From assembly GCF_003334355.1 (NCBI RefSeq), contig NZ_QOWP01000005.1: a stretch of DNA of 64,000 nt; one strand, written 5' to 3'. Both the position numbers and the translations under genes were made by a program. Of this stretch, positions 53,866 to 56,826 are shown in pieces. The notes beneath the pieces are model-generated. The model searched no databases, was not told the DNA's origin, and saw only the letters and a program-made list of their open reading frames with translations. The DNA is from Escherichia coli. GTDB lineage: Bacteria > Pseudomonadota > Gammaproteobacteria > Enterobacterales > Enterobacteriaceae. Each line of letters opens with the position of its first letter. Positions within the stretch are counted from its first letter, which is position 1.

Positions 53866-53972
53866 AGCACATTGCCGGATGCGACGCTTGCCACGTCTTA
53901 TCCGGCCTACGAATACTATGGATTAACTTCGCGTAGTTCGGATAAGGCGTTCGCGCCGCATCCGACAATAAA
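53866..53972. repeat. REP pair (BIME) between yfgD and hda
   Basis: GCCGGATGCGACGCTTGCCACGTCTTATCCGGCCTAC and an inverted copy GTTCGGATAAGGCGTTCGCGCCGCATCCGAC. Confidence 0.85.
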
Positions 53973-53980
53973 CACCTTAT

Positions 53981-54682
53981 CTACAACTTCAGAATTTCTT
54001 TCACAAACGGAATGGTCAGCTTACGTTGCGCGGTAATCGACGCACGATCCAACTGATCCAACGTCATAAATAGCGTGCGCATTTCTCTGTCGAGCCGCTT
54101 CAGCAAGAAACGCCCCACATCTTCCGGCAGTTCAAAACCACGCAAACGCGCGCGTAACTGTAGCGCCTGCAACTTATCTTCATCAGAAAGTGGCTGCAAT
54201 TTGTAGATCTGCCCCCAGTCGAGTCGCGAAGCGAGATCCGGTAATCCCAGATTCAACTGCCGCGGTGGACGATCGCCGGTGATCAACAATCGTGTTTTGC
54301 CCGATTCCAGAATTCGATTGTAGAGATCGAAAATCGCCATCTCCCACAACTCATCGCCTGCAATACACTCAATATTGTCGATACAGACCAGCGACAAATG
54401 CTCCATACCGTCGAGCACTTCCGGAACAAACCAGGTGCGTTTATCCAGCGGGACATAGCCCACCGCATCGCCACGCTGCGACAATTCCGCGCAAGCCGCG
54501 TGCAGCAGATGGCTGCGCCCCGCGCCTTCGCGTGCCCAGAGATAGATGTAACCGCTATGTTCCTGACGCAGCACGTTTTGCAGCGCAGCCAGTAAAGAGG
54601 AGTTATCCCCCGGCCAGAAACTTGCAAAGGTTTCGTCGTCAGGAAGATAAAGTGGCAAAGAGAGCTGTGCCGGTGTGTTCAG
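53981..54682 (-). CDS. hda: DnaA-inactivating AAA+ protein Hda
   Basis: Track ORF 53981..54727 (248 aa); functional start taken as the CTG that gives [16 protein letters not shown] (233 aa), from my recollection of the published start revision. Confidence 0.85.
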
Positions 54683-54776
54683 AGATACCTCAACCAGGAT
54701 TTCACAAAATCGCGAGAAGTTTACCACAGAATCCCATGATGTTTGAACCGGGCAGCAACACTGCCCGGTCGGTACA

Positions 54777-56066
54777 TTATTTGTCTGTTATATCCGCGTC
54801 TTCTGCGTCCAGCACCACTTCTTCAGGGCGCAGCACACTAATCAGTTTGAAGATCAAACTTAAGCCGATACCGACGATGGTCGCCAGCGCCATACCTTTT
54901 AACTCCGCCGCGCCGATGTTTACCTTCGCGCCACTGACGCCGATGATCAAAATCACGGAAGTCAGGATCAGGTTCTGTGCTTTGTTGTAATCCACTTTCG
55001 ATTCGATCAAAACACGAATACCGGAAGCACCGATGACACCATAAAGCAGCAGCGAAACGCCGCCCATCACCGGCAATGGGATCATCTGGATAGCGGCAGC
55101 CAGTTTACCGACGCAGGAAAGCAGGATAGCGAAAATCGCCGCCCCGCCGATAACCCAGGTACTGTAAACACGGGTGATCGCCATCACGCCAATGTTTTCT
55201 CCGTAAGTGGTATTTGGCGTAGAGCCAAAGAAGCCGGAAATCACGGTCGACAAGCCATTAGCAAACATCGAACGGTGCAGACCTGGATCGCGCAGCAGAT
55301 CTTTTTTGACGATATTAGCCGTTACTACCAGGTGCCCTACGTGTTCGGCAATAACCACTAACGCCGCTGGCAGAATAGTCAGAATGGCAAACCACTCGAA
55401 GCGCGGCGTATAGAGGGTTGGCAGCGCAAACCAGTGAGCATTAATAATCGGCGTGGTATCGACAATTCCCATTGCGAAAGAGAGCGCGTAGCCCACCAGC
55501 ACGCCAATTAAAATCGGGATAATTGCCAGGAAACCACGAAACAGCACGGAACCTAAAACCGTGACCGCCAGGGTGGTAATAGAGATGATGATGGTTTTGG
55601 AGTCTGGCGTTTGCCCTTCAGCCGGGAGTAAACCCGCCATACCGGCAGCTACGCCCGCCAGCTCCAGACCGATGACGGCAACGATTGCGCCCATTGCCGC
55701 AGGTGGAAACAGCACGTCCAGCCAGCCGGTCCCCGCTTTCTTCACGATAAAAGAAACCAGGCAGAACAGCACGCCGCACATAATAAAGCCGCCCAGCGCG
55801 ACTTCATACCCTAACGGCAACAGTAACAATACCGGTGAAATAAAGGCAAAGCTGGAACCAAGATAAGCCGGAATTTTCCCTTTACAGATGAAGAGATACA
55901 GCAGCGTTCCAATACCGTTAAATAACAGTACAGTCGCCGGGTTAATATGAAATAAGACGGGCACCAGGACGGTTGCACCAAACATGGCGAACAAATGTTG
56001 CAAACTAAGCGGGATTGTCTGTAAAAGTGGCGGTCTTTCACTCACCCCGATAGCACGGCGCGTCAT
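54777..56066 (-). CDS. uraA: uracil:H+ symporter UraA
   Basis: ORF track trimmed to [16 protein letters not shown] (429 aa). Confidence 0.93.
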
Positions 56067-56109
56067 AGTATTATCCTCTGTATTATGTGTTATAGGCGCT
56101 TTACTCAAA

Positions 56110-56151: not shown

Positions 56152-56778
56152 TTATTTCGTACCAAAGATTTTGTCACCGGCATCGCCGAGGCCCGGAATA
56201 ATGTATCCGTGCTCGTTCAGTCCCTGATCAATCGATGCGGTATACAGTTCGACGTCCGGGTGCGCTTTTTCCAGCGCAGCGATACCTTCTGGCGCAGCGA
56301 CCAGCACCAGAACTTTGATGCTGCTGCAGCCCGCTTTTTTCAGCAGGTCGATGGTCGCGATAACGGAACCACCGGTTGCCAGCATTGGGTCAACGATCAG
56401 CGCCATACGCTCATCGATGTTAGAAACCAGTTTCTGGAAGTACGGTACCGGCTCCAGCGTTTCTTCATTACGGTACATACCGACAACGCTGATGCGCGCG
56501 CTCGGAACGTTTTCCAGCACACCGTCCATCATACCAAGACCCGCACGCAGAATTGGCACAACGGTAATTTTCTTACCTTTGATCTGGTCGATTTCTACCG
56601 GGCCGTTCCAGCCTTCGATAGTTACTTTTTCCGTTTCGAGGTCGGCGGTCGCTTCGTAAGTCAGCAGGCTACCCACTTCGGAAGCGAGTTCGCGAAAGCG
56701 CTTGGTGCTGATATCTTGCTCACGCATCAGTCCCAGCTTGTGTTTGACGAGTGGGTGTTTGACTTCCACGATCTTCAT
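56152..56778 (-). CDS. upp: uracil phosphoribosyltransferase Upp
   Basis: ORF track trimmed to [15 protein letters not shown] (208 aa). Confidence 0.95.
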
Positions 56779-56799
56779 ACTCTTTCTCCTTTGAGGGGC

Positions 56800-56826
56800 A
56801 GCCACAAAAAAAATCGACGGATTATA
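56800..56826 (-). promoter_or_regulatory. upp promoter -10 (TATAAT) and initially transcribed GATTTTTTTTG tract (UTP-sensitive start-site selection/reiterative transcription)
   Basis: Minus strand reads TATAATCCGTCGATTTTTTTTGTGGCTGCCCC, matching the described upp leader. Confidence 0.75.

Follow-up and report, generated by a model that had tools for sequence, protein, structure and literature searches.

Translation of Escherichia coli hda from a CUG codon and the retention of this codon among Enterobacterales

The infC gene of Escherichia coli starts at an AUU codon, which acts as the sensor of the IF3 autoregulatory loop. A CTG start has been recorded for the E. coli gene yfjD (EcoGene 3.0, PMC3531124), and a statement from the same source supports a CUG start for hda, although it is given second-hand from Su'etsugu 2008 (J Biol Chem 283:36118). 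Codons of this type are weak sites of initiation. The strength of a CUG start has been placed at ~1-2% of that of AUG in one assay and at 0.1-3% in others (bioRxiv 10.1101/063800).

The closest described counterpart of the locus considered here is hda of E. coli K-12 (b2496; NP_416991.2 / WP_001307333.1, 233 aa). The RefSeq coding sequence is 702 nt long (233 aa) both in MG1655 (NP_416991.2) and in two other strains (WP_001307333.1), and the locus is found in all 5426 complete E. coli genomes. In the crystal structure of the complex between Hda and the clamp (PDB 5X06), a 20-residue tag is followed directly by MNTPAQ... of the 233-aa protein. The structure paper (PMC5397184) numbers the clamp-binding motif as 6-QLSLPL-11, the P-loop residues as G55/R56/S57, and the arginine finger as R153. 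When residues are counted on the sequence (G55, R56, S57, S152, R153, and D155), this numbering fits only the 233-aa form. [quoted passage not shown] Its supplementary table puts the 2006 start of hda 45 nt ahead of that of 2014; the gene was called 'no change' automatically, and the signal at the CTG site was placed by manual inspection only. The start of hda was corrected years ago in EcoGene, GenBank U00096.3, RefSeq, and UniProt, and in this respect there is nothing new for E. coli.

The window analyzed here is a 64,000-nt stretch of DNA from an E. coli strain other than K-12, with 29 substitutions in 6 kb relative to MG1655. It carries the same hda gene as K-12 among the same neighbors (bepA, yfgD/arsC, hda, uraA, upp), with uraA and upp upstream on the same strand and with yfgD/arsC and bepA on the other strand. 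The 820-nt stretch between 54800 and 53981, which takes in the end of uraA and all of hda, carries 4 substitutions relative to MG1655. The first of these falls at position 214 of that stretch, and therefore MG1655 is matched exactly over the end of uraA, the region between the genes, and the initial 95 nt of hda. The same CTG, Shine-Dalgarno (SD) sequence, and GTG are present in both strains, and the start-codon region holds no relevant difference. The features that define the reading frame are as follows.

53981..54727, minus strand: longest hda ORF, 248 codons (248 aa), from the ORF listing of the window
53981..54682, minus strand: hda coding sequence as used here, with a CTG start and 233 codons plus stop; it matches the RefSeq extent of 702 nt and family model NF005982
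54680..54682 (54682..54680 in the reading direction), minus strand: CUG initiation codon, codon 16 of the longest ORF, kept in 86/86 loci
54725..54727, minus strand: GTG at the head of the 248-codon ORF, annotated in the past as the start; 'cac' on the plus strand
54683..54727, minus strand: 45-nt 'extension' of the longest ORF, taken as non-coding (untranslated leader and promoter DNA); its frame is not conserved
54687..54691, minus strand: SD sequence GAGGU, separated from the CUG by 4 nt; found at -9..-5 without variation in 81/81 loci
54650..54667, minus strand: QLSLPL beta-clamp-binding motif, codons 6-11, from the translation

An earlier note on this DNA covered 54640..54727, which corresponds to the first 88 nt of the 248-aa ORF. 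Its description of a 248-aa product was accurate in coordinates and in the protein quoted, but the codon that opens this ORF is the GTG listed above and not the AUG that had been named. The proposals that functional Hda has 233 aa and that it initiates at CUG are both borne out. The length agrees with the 702-nt RefSeq coding sequence, with the protein present in PDB 5X06, and with the residue numbering of the structure paper, whereas the CUG is supported by the literature, by the TetRP signal at the CTG site, and by the invariance of the codon in the comparison described below. Initiation-site mapping by ribosome profiling, which had been suggested as a check, exists in published form, in that data from tetracycline-arrested ribosomes put the hda signal at the CTG site upon manual inspection. 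Overall, the CUG start of hda is an established and already correctly annotated fact; the note is right in substance, and what it reports is not new.

The presence of a longer ORF carries little information. The nearest in-frame stop, a TAA at 54790..54788, is located 35 codons upstream of the CTG, and the chance of encountering a canonical start somewhere within such a stretch is ~0.8 (1-(58/61)^35). Because a canonical start is expected by chance, an extension of 15 codons is unremarkable in itself. E. coli hda, which encodes the DnaA inactivator, is almost certainly translated from the CUG at 54682..54680 to give a protein of 233 aa, and the GUG located 15 codons upstream occurs there by chance in intergenic sequence and does not function as a start.

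The protein scores above the curated cut-offs of two equivalog models, with 476.6 bits against NCBIfam NF005982 (cut-off 268) and 281.4 bits against TIGR03420 (cut-off 194.8), and Hda homologues carry Pfam domains PF00308 and PF22688. The alignment to NF005982 begins at residue 14 of the 248-aa form and that to TIGR03420 at residue 21, which leaves the extension almost wholly outside the models. Both the AAA+ P-loop (G55 R56 S57) and the Box VII arginine finger (R153) are present in the 233-aa protein, and the identical E. coli Hda has been found to stimulate hydrolysis of DnaA-bound ATP together with the DNA-loaded clamp (literature including PMC5397184). The pattern QL[SP]LPL occurs as QLSLPL at residues 6-11 of the CUG-initiated product, which become residues 21-26 in the 248-aa reading. 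In most of 150 representatives of the family, the Q of this motif is found 1-8 residues from the called N terminus, and the 248-aa reading of the E. coli gene is an outlier in this regard.

Comparative data were obtained from 81 species of Enterobacteriaceae (E. coli and 80 others), with each locus anchored on the codon that aligns with the E. coli CTG. A wider set of 86 Enterobacterales loci was formed by adding Yersinia, Proteus, Erwinia, Xenorhabdus, and Dickeya. CTG occupies the start position in all 81 Enterobacteriaceae and in all five of the other Enterobacterales (86/86), and GAGGT is found at -9..-5 from the CTG in 81/81 Enterobacteriaceae. The median pairwise nucleotide identity of the hda coding sequence among the 81 species is 82%, and therefore the invariance of the CTG does not result from too little divergence. 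Only 10 of the 233 codon columns are invariant across these species, and 7 of the 10 encode Trp or Met, for which a single codon exists. Among the 31 columns that hold Leu in every species, 30 vary, with between 2 and 6 synonymous codons each, and codon 1 alone is invariant. As the only invariant column of this kind, the CTG is therefore under constraint for its three nucleotides and not for a leucine, as expected of a start codon. From these alignments we infer that selection maintains the CUG in its role as a start and not as a leucine codon. Apart from the CTG, just two degenerate codons of hda show no nucleotide change in 81/81 species, namely codon 4 (CCG, 54671-54673) and codon 21 (AGT, 54620-54622), both on the minus strand.

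The sequence upstream of the SD behaves quite differently from the gene. No reading frame is conserved there, and an in-frame stop occurs 4-6 codons before the CTG in 28 of the 81 loci. Canonical in-frame starts upstream of the CTG depend on the lineage and are found at -5, -8, -15, -16, or -24 codons, and in 46/81 Enterobacteriaceae no ATG, GTG, or TTG occurs in frame after the upstream stop and before the CTG. The E. coli GTG, at -15 codons, is not conserved, and only a handful of the 81 loci have a canonical start at that position. The hda locus thus presents what is expected of a near-cognate start, namely an SD at a working distance, constraint on nucleotides beyond that on the amino acid, and no conserved canonical in-frame start that would give the Hda N terminus (none at all in the 46 loci).

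The reach of this start codon appears to coincide with the order. In Yersinia, Proteus, Erwinia, Xenorhabdus, and Dickeya, the start region reads GAG GTG (C/A)TT CTG AAY, and the CTG is kept in all five. The SD in these organisms is GAGGTG, whose GTG is in frame and two codons before the CTG. Gene callers take this GTG as the start, which yields the common 235-aa entries that begin 'MLLNTP...'. The CUG is probably the start in the GAGGTG species as well, and judging from sequence a start at their GTG is also possible. The CUG is preferred because the GTG overlaps the core of the SD and is left without usable spacing. None of the 81 Enterobacteriaceae has a G directly after GAGGT; the base there is A, C, or T. 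Two more distant Hda relatives that were inspected (63% and 52% identity) lack CTG at the aligned position, with TTA in one and a different N terminus in the other, and therefore the CUG start is taken to be a trait of Enterobacterales.

Such a start codon has consequences for annotation. The expectation that gene finders will systematically mis-call hda is accurate for ab initio callers, which give proteins of 235, 238, 241, or 248 aa, but it does not extend to the evidence-guided NCBI pipeline, which places the start correctly. In a public collection, the 233-aa and 248-aa forms are each found on at least 1000 contigs, the 248-aa form serves as the cluster representative, and the 90% cluster also contains versions of 241, 238, and 200 aa. 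The 119 homologues listed include 12 entries of 233 aa. Each of these 12 traces to an NCBI-derived source, and none exclusively to Logan, ENA, JGI, or MGnify. Entries found in these last four sources only are 235, 238, 241, 243, or 248 aa in length, among others, or are truncated. Ab initio callers ignore CTG as a start and therefore create a false Hda extension of 2-39 residues, or a truncation. In protein sets built on such calls the clamp-binding motif is buried or lost, and anyone designing constructs from them would be misled. The two genes upstream of hda also have longest ORFs that exceed their annotated lengths. For uraA (54777-56108, minus strand) the longest ORF gives 443 aa from a TTG, compared to 1290 nt or 429 aa in RefSeq, and for upp (56152-56805, minus strand) it gives 217 aa from a GTG, compared to 627 nt or 208 aa. 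In both cases the excess is the ordinary overshoot of a longest ORF beyond the real ATG.

The region between uraA and hda contains additional conserved features.

54777..54779, minus strand: stop codon of uraA, the upstream gene on the same strand as hda
54747..54769, minus strand: conserved hairpin just past the uraA stop, ACCGGGCAG-TGTTG-CTGCCCGGT, with 9 pairs and not followed by a U-run
54718..54726, minus strand: putative extended -10 element, TGgTAAACT; TGnTAnnnT is present in 86/86 loci

All 86 of the 86 Enterobacterales loci carry the motif TGnTAnnnT downstream of the uraA hairpin, where it ends in a T at -34..-40 from the CTG, and elsewhere in the same loci it occurs in a background of 3.3% of 55-nt windows. 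The TG, the first two hexamer positions (TA), and the terminal T of the motif are invariant, whereas the n and hexamer positions 3-5 vary between genera. In the window, the TG of the motif is formed by the last two bases of the spurious GTG (54727..54725). This profile is that of an extended -10 promoter and suggests that hda has a promoter of its own and a 5' UTR of ~29 nt. Transcription would then begin near 54710/54711, which corresponds to about 2618804/5 on the minus strand of MG1655 NC_000913.3, and a transcript with this predicted start could not encode the 248-aa form. A scan of the region for consensus sigma-70 promoters gave no match, but the scan requires a -35 element and is blind to extended -10 promoters. 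The Cappable-seq supplement has no entry near the predicted hda 5' ends, and the sole transcription start site listed for hda by Kim 2012 lies 620 nt upstream, inside uraA, with 2 reads.

The hairpin is GC-rich and conserved across genera, with compensatory A-U/G-C swaps in 2 of its 9 pairs, and a strict pattern recovers it in 60 of the 81 loci. It may be a 3' end of uraA, a stabilizer, or a partial terminator. On the other side of hda, between arsC/yfgD and the hda stop (53871-53969), there are nested imperfect inverted repeats, for example GCCGGATGCGACG / CGTCTTATCCGGC, which look like extragenic palindromes of the REP/BIME type.

Initiation on hda can be pictured as follows. The GAGGU located 4 nt upstream would set the 30S subunit with CUG in the P site, and the CUG would be read by the initiator tRNA as fMet despite imperfect pairing with the initiator anticodon. 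A start this weak (roughly 0.1-3% of AUG in reporters) probably keeps the synthesis of Hda low. The gene probably also has an extended -10 promoter of its own, and a transcript from it, with a 5' end near 54710/54711, would exclude the spurious GTG. A single change of the first base would suffice to convert the CTG to AUG, GUG, or UUG, but such an upgrade is seen in none of the 86 loci. This strict retention suggests that a low rate of Hda synthesis has been selected. A more ambitious proposal is that the CUG is an actively maintained dosage device, in which weak initiation is selected and is possibly tunable by IF3 like the AUU of infC, so that Hda stays low and matched to the clamp and DnaA, and that the gene's own extended -10 promoter yields a main mRNA without the long start. 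This combined proposal is offered tentatively and is considered rather unlikely. The invariance of the CUG throughout the order and the promoter-like motif constitute minor new material, and together they make hda a testable case of Hda dosage being set at the start codon.

Other accounts of the start region must be weighed against translation from the CUG alone. Both forms might be made, with the CUG giving the 233-aa protein and the GUG at 54727..54725 giving, on transcripts that read through from uraA, small amounts of a 248-aa isoform that has a separate function. Although this GUG is canonical, in frame, and preceded by a weak SD-like GGGA 4 nt upstream, the extension that it opens is not conserved, in that a start at -15 is present in few lineages and 46/81 loci are without any upstream canonical start. 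The lack of a U-run after the uraA hairpin makes read-through plausible, yet the GTG would be promoter DNA if the conserved extended -10 element is real, and the TetRP signal falls at the CTG site. Constructs that begin at the originally annotated start have been used in the field and are described as comparable in activity, which favors the longer protein, whereas the family models leave its first 13 residues uncovered. On this evidence a second isoform is very improbable. It is scarcely credible that the real start is instead located downstream of the CUG, for example at a TTG for residue 9 or a GTG for residue 37, such that the conserved sequence in front would be leader RNA. In none of the 81 species does a canonical in-frame start occur downstream before residue 9, and initiation at such a start would remove or cut QLSLPL, the motif that the crystal structure shows attached to the clamp. 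Some database entries do begin at these positions (MPLYLP..., MLRQEHSG...), and the codons concerned are present in 42/81 (TTG at residue 9) and 21/81 (GTG at residue 37) species, but they are not conserved as starts, residue 9 alternates between TTG and CTG, and neither has an SD in front. Furthermore, codons 2-8 exhibit the third-position variation typical of coding sequence in the 81 species.

Translation from the CUG might in principle be coupled to an upstream ORF, since every locus has, in the +1 frame, a TGA that overlaps the CTG (cTGA). Coupling was rejected as a general mechanism: the upstream ORF is not itself conserved, in 13/81 loci its frame lacks any canonical start, and the commonest candidate, a TTG only 4 codons upstream, abuts the SD and has no SD of its own. 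The overlap is conserved because an invariant Asn codon, AAY, follows the CTG. RNA folding around the hda start gave no significant structure (MFE z-score -0.57 relative to shuffles), and pairing that encloses the SD and CUG is not conserved in the 81 loci.

With translation from the CUG as the preferred reading, hda resembles infC and yfjD. All three genes have a near-cognate start behind a normal SD, initiate weakly, and are missed by ab initio gene finders. Regulation of the infC type is not known for hda. Hda/HdaA orthologues from outside Enterobacterales (TIGR03420; PDB 3BOS, 3SC3) belong to the same AAA+ fold family and share the N-terminal QxxLxL clamp motif. Their called starts, however, are canonical, in contrast to the CUG from which hda is translated in E. 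coli.
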